Positions 3,898 to 15,786 of a stretch of DNA of 42,000 bases are shown here, piece by piece; within the stretch, counting starts at the first letter, position 1; the number at the start of each line of letters is the position of its first letter. The DNA comes from a virus (lineage: Duplodnaviria > Heunggongvirae > Uroviricota > Caudoviricetes): the IMG/VR virus record IMGVR_UViG_2909262264_000004; one strand, 5' to 3'. A program made the translations under genes and the position numbers. The notes beneath the pieces are model-generated. The model ran no database searches. It was not told where the DNA came from and worked only from the letters and a program-made list of their open reading frames with translations.

Positions 3898-4160
3898 CCA
3901 TTCTGGACTACATCGCTACTCATCCGGGGTGTAGCGGCGGAGAGATCGCCGCAGCACTGAACACCCCAACCACAGCTATTAATACTGAGTTACGCCGACT
4001 TTGGCGCGGCGGCTTAGTCATCAGAACAAACCGCAGCACAGGTGGTCGCGCTCGCAAAACTGGAGGCCAGGCTTCTTACCACGTAAACCCGATGCCGTTC
4101 GGGTGTAGCAATCCACTTACTCACATGTTTAACCAGCTACTGAAGGAAGCCAGAACATGA
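3894..4160 (+). CDS. Putative winged-helix DNA-binding protein
   Basis: 88 aa; GGEIAAALNTPTTAINTELRRLWRGGLV resembles a wHTH recognition helix. Confidence 0.4.
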   Translation: MTILDYIATHPGCSGGEIAAALNTPTTAINTELRRLWRGGLVIRTNRSTGGRARKTGGQASYHVNPMPFGCSNPLTHMFNQLLKEART

Positions 4161-5453: not shown

Positions 5454-8276
5454 ATGACGGCAGAGTACATCAGGGACTGGCAACAACCGCGCCACGCAGT
5501 GGGGCGTGAAGGAACGGGGATCCCCGCTCCTGAATCCGCGCTTTCCTCCTGGCTGGATGCCTACCGGGCAGAGAACGAGCGCCGCCAGGAAATGGCTGAT
5601 GCGGCGTTCTCCGCCACGCCGCTGGGCAGCCTGATTAATAAAAGCCTGGATGCACAGGAAAAACAGGACAAAACCATCACACTGGCAGGAGACGCCAGAA
5701 AACAGGCACGCGGCGCGGTGGATGAAGCCATGGCCTCGCTGCGCCTGCTGCCGTCCTATCTGCGCGATCCGCTTATTCGCCACCTCTCCTTCCTGCGCAA
5801 AAAACAGGAAGCCGATCGCCGGAAAGGCAAAAAGAGCTGGCAGGCGGAACGCTACGCGTGCGGAACCCTGCGCAAAATATTCGAACGTCTGGACCGCACC
5901 GACCACCGCTGGCTGACACCGGGTTATCGCTCCCTTGCCGGACGCGAACGCCTGGATGATTTGCTTTACCTGCCGCAGCTCAACAAACACCAGATACAGA
6001 CGCTGGCCACCATGACGGCGGCGATGTTCAGCAGCACCTTCGAAAAACTCTGCGATGGCTTTGGCGCGACTGATGGCGAGCTGACCATGGATGTAACGCT
6101 GAAGGCGTATCAGATGCTGGCCCGCATGGCGTTACACCTGCACGCTATGCCTCCACATTATGACGCTCTGACAACAGACAAAGACCGGAGGAATGAACCG
6201 GACACGGAGCTGCTGCCGGGCGCAATCCTTCGCCTGACCTGTGCGGAATGGTGGAAACGCAAACTGTGGCTGGTACGTTGCGAGTGGAGAGAAGAACAAC
6301 TCCGCGCCGCCTGTCTGGTTTCCAGAAAAACATCGCCATATCTGAGCCAGGACGCGTTAAGCGAGTTTCGCGCACAGCGCGAGAAAACACGCGATTTCCT
6401 GAAAAGTTTCATGCTGGAAAACGAAGACGGGTTCACGATTGATCTCGAGACAGTGTATTACGCGGGAGTAAGTAACCCGGTTCACCGTAAGGCAGAAATG
6501 ATGGCCACCATGAAGGGACTGGAACTTCTGGCCGAAGCCCGTGGCGACAGAGCGGTGTTTCTGACTGTCACCTGCCCGTCAAAATACCACGCAACAACGG
6601 AGAACGGTCATCCGAACCCCAAATGGAACGGGGCCACCATGCGCGACTCCAGCGATTACCTGGTTAACACGTTTTTTGCGGCGGTCCGCAAAAAACTGAA
6701 CCGCGACGGCCTGCGCTGGTATGGCATCCGCACGGTGGAGCCTCACCATGACGGCACCGTGCACTGGCATATGATGGTCTTTGCTCATCCGGAAGAAATC
6801 GACAGCATCGTGACCATCACCCGCGATATTGCCATTCAGGAAGACCGCCACGAGCTGGGCAATGATATTACTCCGCGCTTTAAGGTGGAGTACGTCGACG
6901 GCTCAAAAGGCACACCAACCAGCTATATCGCGACCTACATCGGAAAAAACCTGGACAGCCGCGCCGTGGATGGCATCGACCCGAAAACGGGCAAACCACG
7001 CGTTGACCACGAAACCGGAAAATCAATGGCCGAGAGCGTGGAGCGCGCCATCGGTTGGGCACGCCTTCACCGGGTCCGCCAGTTCCAGTTCTTTGGCATC
7101 CCCTCCCGTCAGGTGTGGCGTGAACTCCGCCGCCTTGCCAGCCAGATGGCACGCAACCCGGAAGGCCCGCAACGGCTGAAGGATGACGCAATGGATGCGG
7201 TACTCGCTGCCGCTGATGCCGGATGTTTTGCCACCTACATTGAGAAACAGGGCGGCGTACTTGTTCCACGCAAAGACTACCTGATTCGCACCGCCTACGA
7301 CCTCGCAGATGAGCTGAACGATTACGGCGAACAGAGCGTACAGATTTACGGGATCTGGTCACCACTCATCGGGGAATCCTCCCGTGTGTGCACGCATCCG
7401 GATAACTGGAAGCTGGTAAGACGCAAACCGGAAGCGGAAGACAGCGCCCGCGAAAATGCTTTTGACCTTCAGGGCGGCCCTGCCGCCCCTTGGACTCGTG
7501 GCAATAACTGTCCCCGTGTACAGGAAACGGACAACAACGGGACAGAACAGCCGGAAGAACGGCCAGCACCGTGGCCGCAGCTCCCTGACGGCGTTGAAGT
7601 GAACGAATGGATGCGCTCACTGAAACGGCACGAACGCCGGGCGCTGATGCGTTCGCTTCGTGACAAACAGGCAAAAAACAGCAGCGATGAAATGCAGAGC
7701 TGGACACAGAGCCGCAAACAGCAGCGGCCTTTGCCTGATAACCACGAATTACTCGCTAAAGAATGGCGGGAGTCTGCTGAATCTCTCGGCTTGCATATCG
7801 GTGAACAACAGATGCAGCACCTGTTACGGGGCGGCAGTCTGTACGTTGACGGCAGCATCATTGCACCGCAGGGATTTGAAATTGTACGCAAACCGGATAC
7901 CCGCCCGGACAGCCGAATCACGCAGCTCTGGCAGCGCCTGAGCCGTAATCACGGCGTAAGCAGCATGGAGATCCGCCATAACCCGGTCTCCAGCTATCTG
8001 GCACAGCTCGGGGCATCAGACCCCGAAGCCGCCGCACGCCTGGCATCCACACTTCAGCAGGTCCAGAACACCATGAAAACACCCGTTACCGTGCTTTCTG
8101 ACATGCTGCGCGCCATCCGCGACGCAGAGCACGCACAGAGAATCAGTGAAACCACTGAACGCGCCCGCCGCAAAGCAGACCTGCTGCGGGGTGGCCTGAC
8201 CAGTGGAAACAAAAAACAGACAGAAACGGGATTCACAAATCCTGTAAATGAGCAAAAAACGCGCCGCGATATATGA
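5454..8276 (+). CDS. A: Replication initiation endonuclease (P2 gpA / 186 RepA family)
   Basis: 940 aa; HWHMMVF histidine motif and YVDGSKGTPTSYIATYIGKNLD tyrosine pair typical of rolling-circle initiators of P2-like phages. Confidence 0.9.
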   Translation: MTAEYIRDWQQPRHAVGREGTGIPAPESALSSWLDAYRAENERRQEMADAAFSATPLGSLINKSLDAQEKQDKTITLAGDARKQARGAVDEAMASLRLLPSYLRDPLIRHLSFLRKKQEADRRKGKKSWQAERYACGTLRKIFERLDRTDHRWLTPGYRSLAGRERLDDLLYLPQLNKHQIQTLATMTAAMFSSTFEKLCDGFGATDGELTMDVTLKAYQMLARMALHLHAMPPHYDALTTDKDRRNEPDTELLPGAILRLTCAEWWKRKLWLVRCEWREEQLRAACLVSRKTSPYLSQDALSEFRAQREKTRDFLKSFMLENEDGFTIDLETVYYAGVSNPVHRKAEMMATMKGLELLAEARGDRAVFLTVTCPSKYHATTENGHPNPKWNGATMRDSSDYLVNTFFAAVRKKLNRDGLRWYGIRTVEPHHDGTVHWHMMVFAHPEEIDSIVTITRDIAIQEDRHELGNDITPRFKVEYVDGSKGTPTSYIATYIGKNLDSRAVDGIDPKTGKPRVDHETGKSMAESVERAIGWARLHRVRQFQFFGIPSRQVWRELRRLASQMARNPEGPQRLKDDAMDAVLAAADAGCFATYIEKQGGVLVPRKDYLIRTAYDLADELNDYGEQSVQIYGIWSPLIGESSRVCTHPDNWKLVRRKPEAEDSARENAFDLQGGPAAPWTRGNNCPRVQETDNNGTEQPEERPAPWPQLPDGVEVNEWMRSLKRHERRALMRSLRDKQAKNSSDEMQSWTQSRKQQRPLPDNHELLAKEWRESAESLGLHIGEQQMQHLLRGGSLYVDGSIIAPQGFEIVRKPDTRPDSRITQLWQRLSRNHGVSSMEIRHNPVSSYLAQLGASDPEAAARLASTLQQVQNTMKTPVTVLSDMLRAIRDAEHAQRISETTERARRKADLLRGGLTSGNKKQTETGFTNPVNEQKTRRDI

Positions 8277-8352
8277 AGCGCGCATAAAACAGGCAAAAAC
8301 GGGATTTCAGAATCCCGTAAACGATTAATTAATCAACATAAGGAAAAGCGAC

Positions 8353-9312
8353 ATGAAAATTTGTATCGATGACGGCTCCACCAACATCAAGCTGGCATGG
8401 ACTGAGAACGGCGAACGCCGCAACGCCATCAGCCCAAACAGCTTCAAGTCGGAATGGTCTGCGCCGTTCGGTGGCACGCAGCCCGCGAACTACATGCTTG
8501 ATGGCGTGCGCTATGGTTTTGATCCGGTCAGCGATCGCTTTGTCCAGACGACCGACACGCAATACCAGTACAGCGATGTGAATGTCATTGCCATTCATCA
8601 CGCGCTGGTCAAATCAGGCATCACGCCACAGGAGGTGGATGTGGTTGTCACCCTGCCACTGAGCGAGTATTTCGACACAAACGCACAGCCGGACATGGCC
8701 AACATCAACCGCAAAAAAGCGAACGTCATGCGCCCGGTGGAGTACCAGAACGGCGAGGCATTCACTATCCGTAACGTGCGGGTTATGCCTGAATCTATTC
8801 CGGCTGGCTTTAAAGCACTGGCTGGCATGAGTCCGTTTGAATCCCTGCTGATTGTGGATTTGGGCGGAACCACGCTGGATGTGGCAAAGGTTCAGGGGCA
8901 ACTGGCAGGTATCAGCCAGGTGTTTTGCGATCCACACGTAGGCGTTTCTCTGATGGCCGATGCCGTGCTGTCGGTGATGGCCACCAACGGTATGCGCACC
9001 AGTCACCACATCGCCAGTACCATTATCGAACATCGCCACGATGAAGCCTGGCTGCGCCAGCACATCCACAATGACGCGCATTACGCCAGCCTGATGGCAG
9101 TTATTCGTGAAAAGGAGGAAACACTGAAACAACGCGTGATCCGCGCGCTGGCGGGTTTTTCGGGTTACGGGCGGGTGATGGTTGTCGGTGGAGGAGCGGA
9201 GATTGTGGCACCCGCTATCCGCGAAGCCTGCGGAGTTAATGCGACTTTCATCGCGGACGGGGTGCCACAGTTTGCTCTGGTTAATGGGCTGTACGCAATG
9301 AACAAGGAGTAA
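8353..9312 (+). CDS. parM: Actin-like segregation ATPase (ParM/StbA family)
   Basis: 319 aa; IDDGSTNIKL, ISPNSFK, YSDVNV, VMPESIPAG, IDLGGTTLD, VVGGGAE, LVNGLY blocks match plasmid R1 ParM as recalled. RBS aaggaaaag. Confidence 0.85.
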   Translation: MKICIDDGSTNIKLAWTENGERRNAISPNSFKSEWSAPFGGTQPANYMLDGVRYGFDPVSDRFVQTTDTQYQYSDVNVIAIHHALVKSGITPQEVDVVVTLPLSEYFDTNAQPDMANINRKKANVMRPVEYQNGEAFTIRNVRVMPESIPAGFKALAGMSPFESLLIVDLGGTTLDVAKVQGQLAGISQVFCDPHVGVSLMADAVLSVMATNGMRTSHHIASTIIEHRHDEAWLRQHIHNDAHYASLMAVIREKEETLKQRVIRALAGFSGYGRVMVVGGGAEIVAPAIREACGVNATFIADGVPQFALVNGLYAMNKE

Positions 9313-9316
9313 ACCA

Positions 9317-9628
9317 ATGACGACACCAACCAGACGGATAAGTTTCTATCTGAAGCCCGCCGCCATCAAGAACGAAGGAGAAGCATGCGCCTGGCTGGAC
9401 AGCCTTACACCAGAAGCCCGCAAAAGCGGCCAACGCGTGGCTTTTCTGGCCGGGCTGGCACTTCTGAAGACGAATCCGGCAGAGGCTTACCGACTGGCCG
9501 CATGGGCTGATGATGAGATGTTACCTGTGACACAAATCAGCTCAAAAAAGTTTGAAGCACAGTCTGCACCAGTGGCTAAAATAACCAGCCAGATGGCTGG
9601 GAATATCCGGGCGTTATTTCCTGAGTAA
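9317..9628 (+). CDS. parR: ParR/StbB-like adaptor
   Basis: 103-aa ORF 4 nt downstream of parM with aaggag RBS; size and position as for ParR. Sequence similarity itself is weak. Confidence 0.6.
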   Translation: MTTPTRRISFYLKPAAIKNEGEACAWLDSLTPEARKSGQRVAFLAGLALLKTNPAEAYRLAAWADDEMLPVTQISSKKFEAQSAPVAKITSQMAGNIRALFPE

Positions 9629-9756
9629 AAGCATCTGCGCGAAAAATGCTCACGTTTATAGAAACAGTATCATTCCATTTGGCACACTTACTTCAATAAT
9701 CGATCTGTTAAACAAATAGATTGTCTATTATCTATCGATTAAAACGATCAATTATC

Positions 9757-9784
9757 TTGACAGTAATGTGCCTTTTTGTAAGAT
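9757..9784 (+). promoter_or_regulatory. Candidate sigma70 promoter with flanking operator-like inverted repeat
   Basis: ttgaca at 9757-9762, 16-nt spacer, taagat at 9779-9784. Imperfect inverted repeat ttatcttgaca (9752-9762) / gacaagataa (9801-9810) brackets it. Confidence 0.3.
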
Positions 9785-9992
9785 CGTTCGCATTGTGAGC
9801 GACAAGATAATTGCGCGGCATTGTCCATGCAAAACGCCCCAATAGCAGCAACTATTGGGGCGTAAAACTCGGTCGGACTCACTTAACCTGATATGCGTGC
9901 CTTCCGAAGTAAATCAAAATGTGCGTCGTATATTTTATTGCTTACACGCACCTCTGTAAAGGCACGCATATTTTTCCTATGAGGTAAATAAA

Positions 9993-10262
9993 GTGCGGGC
10001 TAAAACAGGTATTTGCAAGAACCCTCATCGTTATAACCCAACATTTCTGTCTCTCCCTGAATATCAAGGACAAGAAGGTCGGCACAAATGCGCTGCCTGT
10101 GCTTTTGAGCTAGGCATAAAAGATGCGCTTGAAGGACGCGCTATGGCTCAGAATGATTTAGTTTTAGCTAACATTCCGTTTAGCCAGGCTGGAACTGTAA
10201 GGCACAGAGATGCCTATGAAGCATATGTTCGTGGTTGGCGATTAATACACAGCAACAATTGA
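9993..10262 (+). CDS. Small Cys/His-containing protein of unknown function
   Basis: 89 aa, GTG start with gagg RBS; C-x3-H ... H-K-C-A-A-C arrangement. Last gene before the cos-like region. Confidence 0.45.
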   Translation: MRAKTGICKNPHRYNPTFLSLPEYQGQEGRHKCAACAFELGIKDALEGRAMAQNDLVLANIPFSQAGTVRHRDAYEAYVRGWRLIHSNN

Positions 10263-10272
10263 TACTTTTGAA

Positions 10273-10295
10273 GCGCCGATAAGGCGCTTTTTTTG
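10273..10295 (+). terminator. Intrinsic terminator
   Basis: gcgcc-gataa-ggcgc hairpin followed by TTTTTTT immediately after the 9993-10262 ORF. Confidence 0.6.
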
Positions 10296-10559
10296 TTTGC
10301 ACGATAGTGCACAAGTTTGCACAATTTTTTTGAACGACTTTTTGTACTTCCGGCCCGCGTGGTGGCTGGATCCGTCAAGGATCCGTACGTGCACAAAAAA
10401 ACGCGTTTTTTCTACGCGCAGGTGACGGGGGAACAGCCCGCGTTTCAGGGGGTAAATAGCATTCCCTGAGCGATGTCGCAGCGACACAACAGAATGGCCA
10501 TATTTCTCACGCTGAGCGTGAAAAAGATGTGAGGGCTTTTGATTTGATGGGGTGAAAGG

Positions 10560-10600
10560 TAAGGCCGTCAAAATCGCACTGAGGCGGCGAAGAACATGCA
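10560..10600. other. Candidate cos (cohesive-end) region
   Basis: gaggcggcgaagaaca lies about 160 bp from the portal gene end and resembles P2/186 cos (GGCG.GGCGGGGAAAGCA) as recalled. A second similar string is at about 10423-10437. Weak. Confidence 0.2.
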
Positions 10601-10749
10601 GTCAACGCGGTGGGATTGCGTAAGAGCCTGACCGTCGATGATGGCAAAAAGCTGGAAGGCGTCGTGAAATTATCTGACTGATACAGGAGCTGGAGAGCCG
10701 GGGCATAAATTTTTTATGCCCCGGCGAAGCAGCAGACAAGCGAAGCGCG

Positions 10750-11796
10750 TCAGGATGTGGGCTGGGTGTCCAGCAGTGCATAAGGGTTAAAGCGGATCAC
10801 CTCTTCGCCAAGCCAGTCATTGATGTGCTTCATGGCCTCCATGACGGGCATCAGCTCGTTAATTGCGTAAACCCGCGCGGCCTTCTCCACATCACCAAAC
10901 GCACTTTTTTCACCCGGCATCGCCCCCATCAGTTGCGGCGGGACACGGTGCGCAGCCAGCACATCATCACGGGATGCCGCCTTAACATTCATGAACTCAT
11001 CCTTTGCGGTGATCTGCTGGAACGGCAAAATTTGCACCCCCTCTTTGCCCCCGTTGGGCGCATGAATGAGCACGTTTTTAAACGCACCACCACCACGTGC
11101 ACCCTGTAACGTTTCTTTCAGGGAGTCCATGCTTTCGCGGTTTACCTGCGCTGCACCGATGTAGATGATGCACCCGGCGTGGGATCCGTTGTCGTAATAC
11201 AGTTTTCTGAACATGTCCGCCGAATGAGACAGGCTGGCCGAGAGTAATGCGCCGAGATATTCCGGCATGCCGTAGATTTCCTGGTTAATATCCGGATTCA
11301 TCAGGTGGCACACTTTGCCAGGGCGAAACTGGAACGCGTCCTTGCCATCCTGCACATACCACCATGATTCAAGATCGCTTCCGCGTCGCATGTATTTCGC
11401 CAGGGCGTGCCGTAATTTAAGCGGTTCACCGAGCATATTGCTTCGAAGCTCAAGGAATGCGTTACCGAACACAAACCAGTCCAGCGCCAGCGCCGAGAAA
11501 TCCTGCCGGGAAAGCAGCGGGTGCGGGATGTAGCAACCGAGTAATACATTGCGCTTAAAGTAAAGCGCAGACTGATGCCAGGACGTTTGCCGGGCCGCTC
11601 TTGCCAGACCGTACCAGTCCACCGGGGTTTCATACCACCGCCCGTTATCAGCACAGTACATATTGTCCAGCAGGTCATGCCCGGTCAGGCGATAAGGACC
11701 ATCAAATGTGAATGCACTGAGCGATGATTCTTTCCTGAGCGCATCAGCGAGATCAATGCGTGAACTCATGCGCACTTTTTTATTTTTTCTGCTCAT
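10750..11796 (-). CDS. Q: Portal protein (P2 gpQ family)
   Basis: 348 aa, close to P2 Q length; start overlaps the stop of the upstream P reading frame (ATGA), as in P2. Confidence 0.9.
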   Translation of the reverse strand: MSRKNKKVRMSSRIDLADALRKESSLSAFTFDGPYRLTGHDLLDNMYCADNGRWYETPVDWYGLARAARQTSWHQSALYFKRNVLLGCYIPHPLLSRQDFSALALDWFVFGNAFLELRSNMLGEPLKLRHALAKYMRRGSDLESWWYVQDGKDAFQFRPGKVCHLMNPDINQEIYGMPEYLGALLSASLSHSADMFRKLYYDNGSHAGCIIYIGAAQVNRESMDSLKETLQGARGGGAFKNVLIHAPNGGKEGVQILPFQQITAKDEFMNVKAASRDDVLAAHRVPPQLMGAMPGEKSAFGDVEKAARVYAINELMPVMEAMKHINDWLGEEVIRFNPYALLDTQPTS

Positions 11797-12415
11797 CAGA
11801 ACTCCATAACCGTGAAACGCTCGTTTTCTCCTTCGCCGCCAATTGGTTCGTTAATGACAGCAAGCATGGTCGCCCACGCAAGGTCGCCGTGGCTGATCCC
11901 CCTCGCGCGGTCCGTTTCGTAAGTGATAAAGCCGCCCGGTGTTTTCACCTTACGCACGGCGTTAAAGGCCGCGACCAGTTCGCGTTCGGCGCGATCGTAT
12001 TCCCACCGCCCGGCACGCATTATTTGCAGCATTTTCAGTACCAGCGACCGTTTTGATGACAGCGTGAAGGTGTACGGAATAGCAGCAGGGAAAAACCGTT
12101 TCACTATCTGATAAACAGCCTCCCCGTTCCCGCCCGTCACATCAATACCGATGTGTTCCACGTTGTAGCGACACGTGAACTCTTCAATGACTCTGGCCTG
12201 TTCTTCAAACTCCAGCCCCTGAACGCGTCGCGTCTCCACCGTTCGAAAACGGCCACCAGGAACAGCCGGAGGAACCACCACGGACACAGCGCCGCTGTCG
12301 CCGTTGCCACTGCTGCCGTTTGCGTCATACCCAATCCATACCGGACGATTTCCCATCGGGCGGGGAGCAAAAGGTTTCCAGTCTTTCCAGTCGTCGTATC
12401 CGTCAACGCCGCAGC
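11684..12415. repeat. 732-bp direct repeat, copy 1
   Basis: Identical to 15055-15786 over the stretches compared by eye. Covers the Q 5' end and the P 3' end. Confidence 0.9.
11796..12415 (-). pseudogene. Terminase large subunit fragment (C-terminal ~210 aa only)
   Basis: Identical to the C-terminus of the intact terminase at 15167-16918; the 5' part is replaced by the IS21-family element at 12416. Confidence 0.8.
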
Positions 12416-12617
12416 TGCAAAATGGCATCTAAATCGATCACGGTTTGGCATTCGAATCGATCATGATTTGGCATCCATCTCCGATCACAGTTTGGCATCA
12501 CAATCGATCACGATTTGGCATGCTTCCGATCATTGATTGGCATCCTGCCAGTCACTCCGGGAATTAACTCTTTTCACCACAGTCTTCATTGCCGTGTTTA
12601 AACCAGTGGAGACGGCA

Positions 12618-14183
12618 ATGTCCAGAAAGAGAAAATCCAGGAGCACTATGGAAACCTGTTTTAAGATCCTTCAGCTCAAGTTCGACCAGAAGCTGACTAA
12701 CCGTTGTATCGGACTGACGTTACACATCAGCGCCTCAACCGTTTTTGAGGTTCTTGCACGCTTCAAAGCCTCTTCTCTGTCATGGCCATTACCTGCTGAT
12801 ATATCCCATGACACGCTGGAGAAACTCATTTACCCGCCCAAAGACACCTCTGCGTCAGAGCTTGTTATGCCTGACATGCTGTACTTCGATACGGAAATGA
12901 GAAAACCGGGCGTGACGCGCCAGCTGTTGTGGATGGAATACAAGGCACAGGCGAGTGACAAAGCGATGGGATACTCGCACTTCTGCCGTTGCTACCGGGA
13001 GTGGAAAAAAACGCGACGCCTCTCCATGCGCCAGGAGCATCGTGCCGGCGAAAAGCTCTTTATCGACTTCTGCGGTCCTACGGTTCCTGTTATTAATCCG
13101 GACACCGGAGAGATACGCCGCGTGGCAATCTTCGTGGCCGTGATGGGGGCATCCAACTATACCTACGTTGAAGCGTGCGAAGGTCAGGACATGATGTCAT
13201 GGTTAAATGCCCACAGCCGTTGCCTGACCTTCCTGGGCGGCGTGCCGAAGCTGCTCATCCCCGATAATCTCAAAAGTGCAGTCAAAAAAGCCGATCGCTA
13301 TGAGCCTGTCATCAACGACAGTTATCAGGCGCTGGCTGAGCACTATGGCACGGTTATTATCCCGGCCCGCCCGCGCAAACCTAAAGATAAACCAAAAGCA
13401 GAAAACGGCGTCCTCATCGTCGAACGATGGCTTCTTGCCCGCATCCGTAATGAAACCTTCCACACGCTCAGGGCGCTGAATGCGCGCCTTCGGGAGTTAC
13501 TGACGGACATGAATAACCGGCCAATGAAGGGGTACGGCAATCAAACCCGTGCAGAACGCTTCCGCATGCTGGATGCGCCAGCACTCTCTCCGCTGCCTCT
13601 GGCACCTTATGAATACACGGAATACAAAGCCGTGAAGGTTGGCCCTGACTATCACGTTGAATATGCCCGTCACTGGTACTCCGTTCCACACGAACTGGTC
13701 GGTCAGCGTCTGTCACTGAAGGCGGGGCAGTCTGTGGTACAACTCTGGCACAAGGGGCAGTGTGTGGCGCAACATCCGCGCAGCACACATGAATATAAAC
13801 ACACAACCAATCCGCTTCACATGCCAGAGCGCCACCGGCAGCACGGGACATGGACACCGGAACGCCTGATCGAGCAGGGGAAACGTACGGGCCCGTCCAC
13901 AGGCCGGGTGGTTGAATCCATGCTGAAGGCAAAACCCCATCCGGAACTGGCTTATCGTGCAGTTCTGGGGCTGCTGGCACTTCAGAAAAAATACGGCCCG
14001 GAACGACTGGAAAAGGCCTGTTACGTTGCCCTGCACTATAACGCCCCTGACAGACGCTTTATCGACAATCTGCTGCGTCACCATCGGGAGAACCTGGAGC
14101 TTCCATTATCCCGCCAGGGCGAACAACATCCGACATATGCTTCAGAGCATGAAAACCTGCGTGGTCCGGGCTACTACCACTGA
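12618..14183 (+). CDS. istA: IS21-family transposase IstA
   Basis: ATG at 12618 with ggaga RBS; N-terminal HTH, central DDE region; upstream of and overlapping istB as in IS21-family elements. Confidence 0.85.
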   Translation: MSRKRKSRSTMETCFKILQLKFDQKLTNRCIGLTLHISASTVFEVLARFKASSLSWPLPADISHDTLEKLIYPPKDTSASELVMPDMLYFDTEMRKPGVTRQLLWMEYKAQASDKAMGYSHFCRCYREWKKTRRLSMRQEHRAGEKLFIDFCGPTVPVINPDTGEIRRVAIFVAVMGASNYTYVEACEGQDMMSWLNAHSRCLTFLGGVPKLLIPDNLKSAVKKADRYEPVINDSYQALAEHYGTVIIPARPRKPKDKPKAENGVLIVERWLLARIRNETFHTLRALNARLRELLTDMNNRPMKGYGNQTRAERFRMLDAPALSPLPLAPYEYTEYKAVKVGPDYHVEYARHWYSVPHELVGQRLSLKAGQSVVQLWHKGQCVAQHPRSTHEYKHTTNPLHMPERHRQHGTWTPERLIEQGKRTGPSTGRVVESMLKAKPHPELAYRAVLGLLALQKKYGPERLEKACYVALHYNAPDRRFIDNLLRHHRENLELPLSRQGEQHPTYASEHENLRGPGYYH

Positions 14184-14199
14184 CAGAAGGAACAACAGT

Positions 14200-14955
14200 A
14201 TGAGTGATAACCTGTTAAACAAACTGACCCAACTGAAACTCCCGGCGATGGCCGGGAGCCTGATACGGCAGCGGGAAACGCCTCAGACCTACGACGAACT
14301 GTCGTTCGAGGAAAGGCTGACGCTGCTGGTTGATGACGAGCTTCTGAGCAGGGAAAACAGCCGTGTGGCACGGTTGAGAAAAAATGCCGGCCTGAAATAC
14401 CAGGCAACACCGGAAGGGCTGCGCTATCCGGCCTCAAGAGGTCTGCGGGCTGAACAGATGAGAGAACTGCTGAACGGTCACTACATAACCCACAGGAAAA
14501 ACCTGCTGATAACCGGTCCGACAGGATGTGGCAAGAGCTGGATAGCCAATGCGCTGGGCGAACAGGCATGTCGACAGAAACACAGCGTCCGGTACTGTAG
14601 AACCGGGCGATTACTGGAACAGCTGGCTCAGGGACGTGTTGATGGCAGCTGGCTGAAATATCTGAAACAGTTGCAAAAAATACAGGTTCTAATCCTGGAC
14701 GATCTGGGGCTGGAACAGTTAAGTAACGCCCAGTGTAATGACCTTCTGGAGCTCATAGAGGATCGTTACGGACAAAGCAGCACGATAGTGGTAAGCCAGT
14801 TCCCGGTAGATAAATGGCATGGTCTGATGGAAAACCCAACAACAGCAGATGCCATCCTGGACAGACTGGTACATAACTCACACAGAGTGGTCCTTCAGGG
14901 AGAGTCCCTGAGGAAAAATCCCCCGACAGTGGAAAGCAGCGAAAAAACGAGTTAA
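14200..14955 (+). CDS. istB: IS21-family ATP-binding helper IstB
   Basis: 251 aa; Walker A GPTGCGKS and Walker B LILDDLG. Confidence 0.85.
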   Translation: MSDNLLNKLTQLKLPAMAGSLIRQRETPQTYDELSFEERLTLLVDDELLSRENSRVARLRKNAGLKYQATPEGLRYPASRGLRAEQMRELLNGHYITHRKNLLITGPTGCGKSWIANALGEQACRQKHSVRYCRTGRLLEQLAQGRVDGSWLKYLKQLQKIQVLILDDLGLEQLSNAQCNDLLELIEDRYGQSSTIVVSQFPVDKWHGLMENPTTADAILDRLVHNSHRVVLQGESLRKNPPTVESSEKTS

Positions 14956-15054
14956 AAAGCGATAGAAAAAGTTAAGTTCCCGGTTGATCGAATGTATGCG
15001 AATCGCTGATCGGACTTCGATGCCAATCCGTGATCGAATAGAGCGGAATACGCA

Positions 15055-15167
15055 GTCAGGCGATAAGGACCATCAAATGTGAATGCACTGAGCGATGATT
15101 CTTTCCTGAGCGCATCAGCGAGATCAATGCGTGAACTCATGCGCACTTTTTTATTTTTTCTGCTCAT
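15055..15167 (-). pseudogene. Portal gene 5' fragment (first 38 codons)
   Basis: Same N-terminus as the portal (MSRKNKKVRMSSRIDLADALRKESSLSAFTFDGPYRLT), then reads into IS-derived sequence (ORF 14952-15167). Confidence 0.7.
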
Positions 15168-15786
15168 CAGAACTCCATAACCGTGAAACGCTCGTTTTCT
15201 CCTTCGCCGCCAATTGGTTCGTTAATGACAGCAAGCATGGTCGCCCACGCAAGGTCGCCGTGGCTGATCCCCCTCGCGCGGTCCGTTTCGTAAGTGATAA
15301 AGCCGCCCGGTGTTTTCACCTTACGCACGGCGTTAAAGGCCGCGACCAGTTCGCGTTCGGCGCGATCGTATTCCCACCGCCCGGCACGCATTATTTGCAG
15401 CATTTTCAGTACCAGCGACCGTTTTGATGACAGCGTGAAGGTGTACGGAATAGCAGCAGGGAAAAACCGTTTCACTATCTGATAAACAGCCTCCCCGTTC
15501 CCGCCCGTCACATCAATACCGATGTGTTCCACGTTGTAGCGACACGTGAACTCTTCAATGACTCTGGCCTGTTCTTCAAACTCCAGCCCCTGAACGCGTC
15601 GCGTCTCCACCGTTCGAAAACGGCCACCAGGAACAGCCGGAGGAACCACCACGGACACAGCGCCGCTGTCGCCGTTGCCACTGCTGCCGTTTGCGTCATA
15701 CCCAATCCATACCGGACGATTTCCCATCGGGCGGGGAGCAAAAGGTTTCCAGTCTTTCCAGTCGTCGTATCCGTCAACGCCGCAGC
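15055..15786. repeat. 732-bp direct repeat, copy 2
   Basis: Duplicate of 11684-12415 immediately right of the IS. Confidence 0.9.

Follow-up and report, generated by a model that had tools for sequence, protein, structure and literature searches.

The 42,000-nucleotide stretch of DNA studied here (the window; IMG/VR virus record IMGVR_UViG_2909262264_000004) carries a P2/186-like prophage in which a short interval between the parR and portal genes, positions 9629 to 10297, holds a sigma-70 promoter, a leader of ~200 nucleotides (nt), an open reading frame (ORF) for an 89-amino-acid (aa) Cys/His protein, and a terminator. This unit is an autonomous mobile accessory ('moron') cassette, present as about ten diverged alleles. 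Its leader probably contains, as we read its conserved features, a gene for a cis-antisense small RNA (sRNA) of ~95 to 100 nt that would repress the ORF mRNA. An earlier note on this DNA, made from the letters alone, had proposed an accessory gene here, and this is borne out, the cassette being the cargo of a variable slot.

The boundaries are set by related prophages. Sister prophages with parMR and other cargo (L131 and L132; L numbers are our labels for the loci compared) and a prophage carrying a diverged allele (L056) lose homology to the window at 9628 and regain it at 10298, and the sister prophages share the same gpA-parM-parR backbone with different genes in the position of the cassette. 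Positions 9629 to 10297 are therefore the entire variable content of the gpA-gpQ hotspot in this prophage, and essentially the interval that had been flagged at the outset. The gpA-gpQ interval is a published P2 hotspot (Rousset et al. 2022, PMC9122126), a partition system is found there in about a quarter of P2-like phages, and the exact protein, WP_001390707, is listed in a supplementary table as 'StbA + Plasmid_stab_B + hypothetical' (PMC9122126). Like other cargo between A and the portal gene Q, including old, tin, and many defense systems (PMC9122126), the cassette is swapped for other genes in sister prophages, but it consists of one small gene with a predicted RNA regulator. Of 5426 complete Escherichia coli genomes, 165 have the cassette region at 99% identity or more, and 1302 have parMR.

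Homologues with 50 to 64% protein identity come with ~300 nt of homologous upstream DNA and a terminator of their own in different phage backbones. One diverged allele (L055-57) occupies the same P2 slot. Others lie in P22-like and other lambdoid phages directly downstream of a cI-type repressor gene (L002, L059, and L061-66), which is the position of rexAB in lambda; in a Providencia phage between Q and the lysis genes (L003, L004, L048, L058, and L060); and in further E. coli lambdoid prophages (L075-77, L086/87, L113, and L130). Two different alleles are present in E. coli W284, each in its own prophage. Separately, in Escherichia phage 503458 (CP025874.1 / NC_049341.1, 24869-25582) the cassette DNA is 98.6% identical to that of the window, the ORF matches only over residues 9 to 66, at 86% identity and in two places, and the gene appears disrupted. 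We also note an extra 95-aa ORF with no Pfam match between the cassette and the resumed backbone in L056 and L057 (3334-3621).

The promoter predicted for the ORF mRNA agrees with the consensus at 10 of 12 positions, has a predicted start at ~9792, and is retained in all diverged alleles with a spacer of 16 to 17 nt, the -35 hexamer varying among TTGACA, TTGAAG, TTGAGG, and TTGATC and the -10 hexamer among TAAGAT, TAGGAT, TATAAT, and TATTAT. The near-consensus promoter with its -35 at 9757 that had been proposed from the window is present as stated and looks real.

Facing it on the minus strand is a second, promoter-like site, which was not among the features first noticed. Its motif, CTTTACA-17 nt-TAnnnT, provides the invariant columns in 17 alleles, and the only ones in an otherwise variable stretch; the spacers differ, and the -10 takes the forms TAAAAT, TAATCT, TAGACT, TACGAT, TACTCT, and TAGTCT. 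Read on the plus strand, the -35 is a TGTAAAG upstream of the start codon in every allele. The motif is found in all 62 cassette loci, 21 to 52 nt before the called start codon (29 to 34 nt in nearly all), and in none of 58 loci with homologues outside the cassette; a 59th locus that scored negative (L113) is a cassette allele with a mis-called start codon.

Between the two promoters lies a perfect 12-bp hairpin, likewise absent from the earlier note, with a loop of 4 to 8 nt across alleles and arms that differ in sequence: GCCCCAATAG/CTATTGGGGC in the window, GGCCCAGAAGG/CCTTCTGGGCC in P22-like alleles, and CCCCTGTGTAG/CTACAGAGGGG in Providencia. When the alleles are aligned with MAFFT, 90.9% of hairpin cells are paired, with compensatory changes at 9 of 11 pairs and slid controls at 35 to 62%. 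Realignment of 17 alleles with a covariance model gives 92.5% of cells paired and compensatory changes at 6 of 8 pairs, with a covariation score of 0.64 (0.23 in shuffles); none of 500 shuffles reaches the covariation score in either alignment, and slid controls span 31 to 65% overall. The near-identical E. coli copies comprise 12 distinct sequences, with too few substitutions for covariation.

The hairpin also carries a strand bias. G-U cells in the alignment that are valid on one strand only number 14 on the minus strand and 1 on the plus strand, and folds of the individual alleles contain 21 G-U pairs in the minus reading. All 15 allele hairpins examined are followed on the minus strand by a T- or pyrimidine-rich 3' tract (GCGTTTTGC in the window), the plus-strand equivalent being A-rich. 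Together with the invariant minus-strand promoter, these features argue for a minus-strand sRNA, which in the window would start ~7 nt past the TAAAAT, near 9925, and end near 9829. The predicted RNA has a fold z-score of -4.0; its length of ~95 to 100 nt here compares with ~70 to 75 nt in other alleles. A covariance model (R1) finds one match per cassette locus, always opposite the ORF, and none in the non-cassette loci.

No known RNA family accounts for this element. Rfam searches of positions 8000 to 11000 of the window in E-value mode returned only matches below threshold, all to the hairpin (ctRNA_pGA1, 22.1 bits with a gathering score of 45; sar, 22 and 43; Spot_42, 19.4 and 80); five other alleles had no match at the gathering score, which no antisense or antitoxin family (Sok, sar, C4, RdlD, IstR, SymR, Sib, and others) reached. 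In the literature searched, the cassette and its RNA go unmentioned apart from the catalogue entry in PMC9122126. The regulatory principle is itself known; the sRNA and the protein family have no description in that literature, nor in Rfam, Pfam, or NCBIfam. As a separate observation, the predicted single-stranded 5' end of the sRNA bears a palindrome containing GATC in most alleles (for example L002 at ~3905-3922, L075, L086, and L003). It reads GAGATCTC in P22-like alleles and in L065-L086, reads GTGATCAC in Providencia, and is missing from the window allele and L055.

The leader, which had been suspected of being structured, folds with a z-score well beyond chance (Table 1) and is ~170 nt in other alleles, the window allele having an insertion of ~27 nt. 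Every allele has a leader stem, with a different sequence each time and a constant position relative to the sRNA and its promoter: the 5' arm has the hairpin on one side and the minus-strand -10 on the other, and the 3' arm lies over the minus-strand promoter. The 13-bp perfect inverted repeat of the earlier note appears to be the window allele's version of this stem, its left arm falling within the sRNA-complementary part and its right arm overlapping the minus-strand -35. That it encloses a 6-bp repeat is correct; its end is 9 nt short of the Shine-Dalgarno (SD) sequence and 21 nt short of the GTG start at 9993, whereas the distance to the ribosome binding site had been given as 20 nt. The repeat bracketing the plus-strand promoter is also present, at a length of 11 bp rather than the 10 bp given. 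The window thus has perfect repeats of 11, 12, and 13 bp. When the 364-nt intergenic region (9629-9992) was shuffled 1000 times with dinucleotides preserved and loops of up to 80 nt allowed, a perfect repeat of at least 11 bp arose in 9 shuffles, one of at least 12 bp in 3, and one of at least 13 bp in none, nor did any shuffle hold three repeats of at least 11 bp. The SD lies within a small hairpin in other alleles, and a comparable terminator ends the cassette in all of them. Small leader peptides and a 44-aa minus-strand ORF (9748-9882) are not conserved between alleles on inspection of the sequences.

Table 1. Features of the cassette and of its surroundings in the window
Feature	Position	Strand	Details
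Whole cargo cassette	9629-10297		Homology breaks at 9628, back at 10298
AT-rich imperfect palindrome with two ClaI sites	9696-9755	.	Arms 9696-9721 / 9730-9755, 73% complementary
Conserved box TAAAACGATCAAT	9740-9752	+	GATC 9746-9749, 33 nt before the first -10 base
11-bp perfect inverted repeat around plus-strand promoter	9749-9759 / 9803-9813		CAATTATCTTG / CAAGATAATTG
Sigma-70-type promoter of ORF mRNA	9757-9784	+	TTGACA 9757-9762, 16-nt spacer, TAAGAT 9779-9784
Predicted 5' leader of mRNA	9792-9992	+	~200 nt; fold z-score -3.9
Predicted cis-antisense sRNA	9829-9925	-	~95-100 nt; 5' part single-stranded, then terminator hairpin and UUUU
Covarying 12-bp perfect hairpin	9834-9845 / 9852-9863	-	Followed by TTTTG; read as sRNA terminator
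13-bp perfect repeat, read as leader stem	9891-9903 / 9959-9971	+	ATATGCGTGCCTT / AAGGCACGCATAT; 55 nt between arms
Inner 6-bp repeat	9921-9926 / 9945-9950		GTGCGT / ACGCAC; flanks minus-strand -10
Predicted antisense promoter	9932-9960	-	-35 TTTACA 9960-9955, 17 nt, -10 TAAAAT 9937-9932
Shine-Dalgarno GAGG	9981-9984	+	8 nt before GTG start
89-aa ORF, tandem-repeat Cys/His domain	9993-10262	+	GTG start; 3 Cys, 4 His
Intrinsic terminator of cassette	10270-10297	+	Hairpin 10270-10290, then T run
gpA replication endonuclease	5454-8276		PF05840 match
ParM	8353-9312		
ParR/StbB	9317-9628		Stop codon at 9628
Portal gene	10750-11796		Strand opposite to 89-aa ORF

In the mechanism that we propose, the sigma-70 promoter at 9757-9784 would give an mRNA with the ~200-nt leader, the ORF, and its own terminator, and the convergent sigma-70 promoter at 9960-9932 would give an antisense sRNA ending at the hairpin (9863-9834) and its U tract. 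The promoters face each other with predicted start sites ~130 bp apart. The sRNA would be perfectly complementary to the middle of the leader, with the 12-bp hairpin as its terminator; the 5' arm and loop of the 13-bp stem would be the target of its single-stranded 5' end, and the 3' arm would overlie its promoter. Pairing, probably followed by cleavage of the duplex by RNase III, together with head-on transcriptional interference, would keep the protein low in the lysogen. Cis-antisense repression is known from hok/sok, IS10 RNA-OUT/RNA-IN, and P22 sar/ant, and because the layout matches these systems we infer that the sRNA represses the mRNA. In hok/sok and IS10 RNA-OUT/RNA-IN, the antisense sRNA gene is likewise nested in the leader of the mRNA that it controls, with convergent promoters, a single-stranded sRNA 5' end facing a target stem-loop, and a terminator hairpin, and these too are on mobile elements. 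Our cassette differs in encoding a hydrophilic Cys/His domain of 89 aa where those systems have a small membrane peptide or a transposase, in that the sRNA target ends ~68 nt upstream of the start codon, and in having no sequence or Rfam similarity to either.

Several points weigh against repression by such an RNA. Both promoters and both RNA ends are predictions. The sRNA overlaps neither the SD nor the start codon, and forcing its target to be unpaired in silico gives no consistent change in SD accessibility across 11 alleles; pairing may activate expression instead of repressing it. The U tract is short, with 4 U here and 2 to 3 U followed by C in several alleles, and the efficiency of termination is therefore uncertain. 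The hairpin is nearly strand-symmetric, and it is the G-U bias and the adjoining tracts that decide the strand. All alleles belong to related enterobacterial phages, whose shared descent inflates the shuffle statistics.

A special case of antisense repression is a type I toxin-antitoxin (TA) system, in which the 89-aa protein would be a toxin, the sRNA an unstable antitoxin, and the pair would stabilize the prophage along with parMR. This we consider unlikely. The long structured leader with a nested antisense sRNA gene and the SD in a small hairpin do recall hok/sok or ldr/rdl, the cassette is on mobile elements and in this prophage directly follows a plasmid-type partition system, and the disrupted ORF of phage 503458 is what would be expected for a costly protein. 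Type I toxins, however, are usually under 60 aa and hydrophobic or membrane-active. At 89 aa, the protein is larger than is typical, and it is hydrophilic, with a GRAVY (grand average of hydropathy) of -0.57, a maximum Kyte-Doolittle value of 0.58 in a 19-residue window, and no membrane segment. There is also no Rfam match to a type I antitoxin RNA. Most members of the family are without the sRNA promoter and are found in operons with a methylase or R.DpnII or as parts of larger proteins, which argues against intrinsic toxicity.

The repeats might instead be DNA operators, with a repressor exerting tight and possibly SOS-linked transcriptional control without a functional antisense RNA, but this is less probable still. 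The perfect 11-bp repeat overlaps the plus-strand -35 and the 13-bp repeat overlaps the minus-strand -35, the plus-strand -35 has an AT-rich dyad and an invariant GATC immediately before it, and one allele (L086/L130) has a CTGT-N8-ACAG core. The sequences of the repeats and the positions of their arms nevertheless vary among alleles while pairing and overall placement are kept, which is the signature of RNA structure and not of a conserved operator, and the minus-strand G-U bias also speaks against operators. The 11-bp repeat is missing from the closest diverged allele, L055, and its function is therefore uncertain. Other than the ORF itself, the cassette has no recognizable DNA-binding regulator. 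The earlier idea that nested repeats tightly regulate the gene holds as regards the long structured leader, and in place of protein operators we prefer an RNA-level explanation, the repeats appearing better explained by a convergent antisense sRNA gene within the leader.

Upstream of the promoter, the GATC of the conserved box is found 32 to 34 nt before the -10 in 11 of 11 diverged alleles, while neighboring bases vary. The AT-rich palindrome, in which ATCGAT (ClaI) occurs at 9699-9704 and 9734-9739 within 26-nt imperfect arms, is common only to the window and allele L055-57 and is a candidate operator or UP-like element of the cassette promoter. We note, as an aside, that the L086/L130 allele, in a lambdoid prophage of E. 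coli W284, has a perfect LexA-type core, CTGTAAAAAAATACAG, in a dyad ATCTGT-N8-ACAGAT ~58 nt before the -10, and that other alleles have a degenerate A-tract-centered dyad in its place; this dyad may be a shared upstream operator.

It had also been suggested that the gene is placed where phage 186 carries its SOS-controlled antirepressor, and a counterpart of that gene is not supported: there is no LexA box in the window allele and no match to an antirepressor family. The LexA consensus has no match with up to 3 mismatches anywhere in the window, CTG-N10-CAG does not occur in 9629-9992, and the LexA-type core is found only in allele L086/L130, ~25 bp upstream of the -35. Like the LexA-controlled Tum of 186, P22 sar/ant, and P1/P7 c4/ant, the cassette is a temperate-phage accessory gene that is apparently off in the lysogen, and its genome region in this prophage is the one that holds tum in 186. 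It differs from tum in being without a LexA box and from P22 sar in having only a sub-threshold Rfam match to the terminator hairpin (22 bits, with 43 needed), and its protein matches no antirepressor family. As the cassette is also found at unrelated lambdoid positions, downstream of cI or between Q and the lysis genes, its place beside the replication gene is not specific.

A purely cis-acting leader, in which the 13-bp stem and a run of U form an attenuator or structured switch on the plus strand and the minus-strand promoter is fortuitous, is very improbable. It would make sense of the TTTTT directly after the stem (9972-9976), of a fold much better than that of shuffles (z-score -3.9), and of the U-rich sequence after the stem in the Providencia allele; the U tract is, however, not conserved, being absent in L068 and weak in P22-like alleles, no Rfam cis-regulatory family matches, and the invariant CTTTACA-17-TAnnnT and the minus-strand G-U bias are left unexplained.

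Weakest is the suggestion that the AT-rich stretch at 9690-9750 is a centromere (parC) for parMR, which we regard as barely credible: the stretch is AT-rich and palindromic, lies directly downstream of parR, and among cassette alleles occurs only in the two that follow parMR, but it is present in only about 165 genomes against 1302 of 5426 with parMR, homology to parMR prophages with other cargo stops at the end of parR and these have no copy of the motif, in L055-57 it follows an unrelated terminator and remains joined to the promoter, and two copies of the palindrome AACGGGATTnnnnAATCCCGTAAA are available at and upstream of the parM start region. These copies, at 8225-8248 and 8298-8321, are 73 bp apart and are a candidate ParR-binding centromere or promoter; type II centromeres, such as parC of R1, lie upstream of parM. 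They are inside a direct repeat of 42 nt that runs across the end of gpA and the region upstream of parM, and the second copy also scans as a minus-strand terminator.

With antisense repression as the preferred account of the leader, we turn to its product. That the ORF encodes a small Cys/His protein is upheld by a match to PHROG 3941, its sole family match and one of function not known; there is no Pfam or NCBIfam match. A word-index protein search found only 2 near-identical proteins, and the family surfaced through exhaustive HMMER searches (172 representative proteins) and the profile searches that had been called for, which reach at least 1598 protein clusters, none of them named. C8, H12, C33, and C36 are invariant across the family, and R30, H31, S64, Q65, R70, and H71 are invariant or nearly so; the four Cys and His residues plausibly form a zinc site. 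The two halves of the protein are homologous repeats with the pattern LPxxQxGxxRHK...AYxxGY (hhalign E value 6.7e-11), and the domain is thus pseudo-dimeric. An AlphaFold2 model with a mean pLDDT (a per-residue confidence score) of 85.6 has no structural match in PDB or BFVD. Resemblance to the ribosome modulation factor (RMF; PF04957) was considered and rejected: 21 of 48 members give sub-threshold matches, the best with an E value of 8.7e-4, and hhalign against E. coli RMF aligns only 14 columns, the A..GY..G motif, at a probability of 3.4%.

Outside the cassette, homologues are encoded in DpnII-type GATC restriction-modification clusters, often with a gap of only a few bases to the neighboring gene. 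A gene for a D12 Dam-like methylase, an N6_N4 methylase, or R.DpnII lies within 1.5 kb in at least 29 of 58 non-cassette loci; elsewhere the domain is fused to HNH_2, NOV_C (PD-(D/E)XK), DndB/DpdB, and WYL domains. With low to moderate confidence, these contexts suggest a nucleic-acid-binding or regulatory module tied to adenine methylation and restriction. Against this, the function is read only from neighborhood and fusions, isoelectric points in the family span 5.4 to 9.2, and upstream of restriction-modification homologues there is no enrichment of GATC (11 of 51 regions). The 42 kb of the window encode no methylase or DpnII gene. A close parallel is offered by the controller (C) proteins of restriction-modification systems, which are also small (~80 to 100 aa) and encoded inside type II operons, as family members are in DpnII-type operons. 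Unlike C proteins, the family lacks a helix-turn-helix, the fold being a Cys/His tandem repeat, and we found no conserved operator resembling a C box. The C-protein setting within a restriction-modification cluster is true of the non-cassette members and not of the window copy.

Some homologues on gut metagenome contigs (L008-L013) stand beside an orphan Dam-like methylase and a DUF6996/DUF6997/DUF7226 protein, and L012 has these genes within a conjugative element that also encodes a TraG/TrwB-type coupling protein, RadC, and DUF3644, a setting typical of anti-restriction regions rather than of restriction-modification systems.

A speculative synthesis, which we consider unlikely, is that the protein is a new DNA-binding module other than a helix-turn-helix that is linked to GATC adenine methylation, acting as a reader or controller in DpnII-type systems and as a nuclease-targeting domain, and that temperate phages of enterobacteria captured it as a gene standing by itself. 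It is similarly doubtful, though conceivable, that the phages then placed it under an antisense sRNA of its own and gave its promoter a fixed GATC, which could couple the expression or action of the protein to the methylation or replication state of the DNA. Were this so, such a protein could be of use to phages in contests with one another or against restriction by the host.

If the sRNA is real, a conserved mobile cassette of sRNA and protein joins the small set of phage accessory genes under antisense control, and could be a model for how prophages silence their cargo genes. The cassette also provides a handle on a large uncharacterized family, of at least 1598 clusters in several phyla, that accompanies Dam/DpnII restriction-modification and nuclease domains. 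PADLOC defense models give no match to the 89-aa protein, and the literature searched yielded no report of the cassette being assayed for anti-phage activity. Previously listed only as 'hypothetical', it lies in the P2 defense hotspot and is a concrete, inexpensive candidate for screens of defense and counter-defense; about one E. coli genome in four has this hotspot together with parMR.

Two further features of the prophage lie outside the cassette. The gpA protein has 940 aa, of which the Pfam GPA domain covers only residues 179 to 503, leaving a C-terminal extension of ~440 aa with no family match. The terminase region contains an IS21-like element (ORFs 12537-14183 and 13957-14955; insert 12416-15054) bracketed by an exact direct duplication of 732 bp (11684-12415 / 15055-15786), and an uninterrupted prophage (L001) has neither the insert nor the duplication. 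The duplication is far beyond a normal target-site duplication and may reflect a rearrangement or an assembly artifact.

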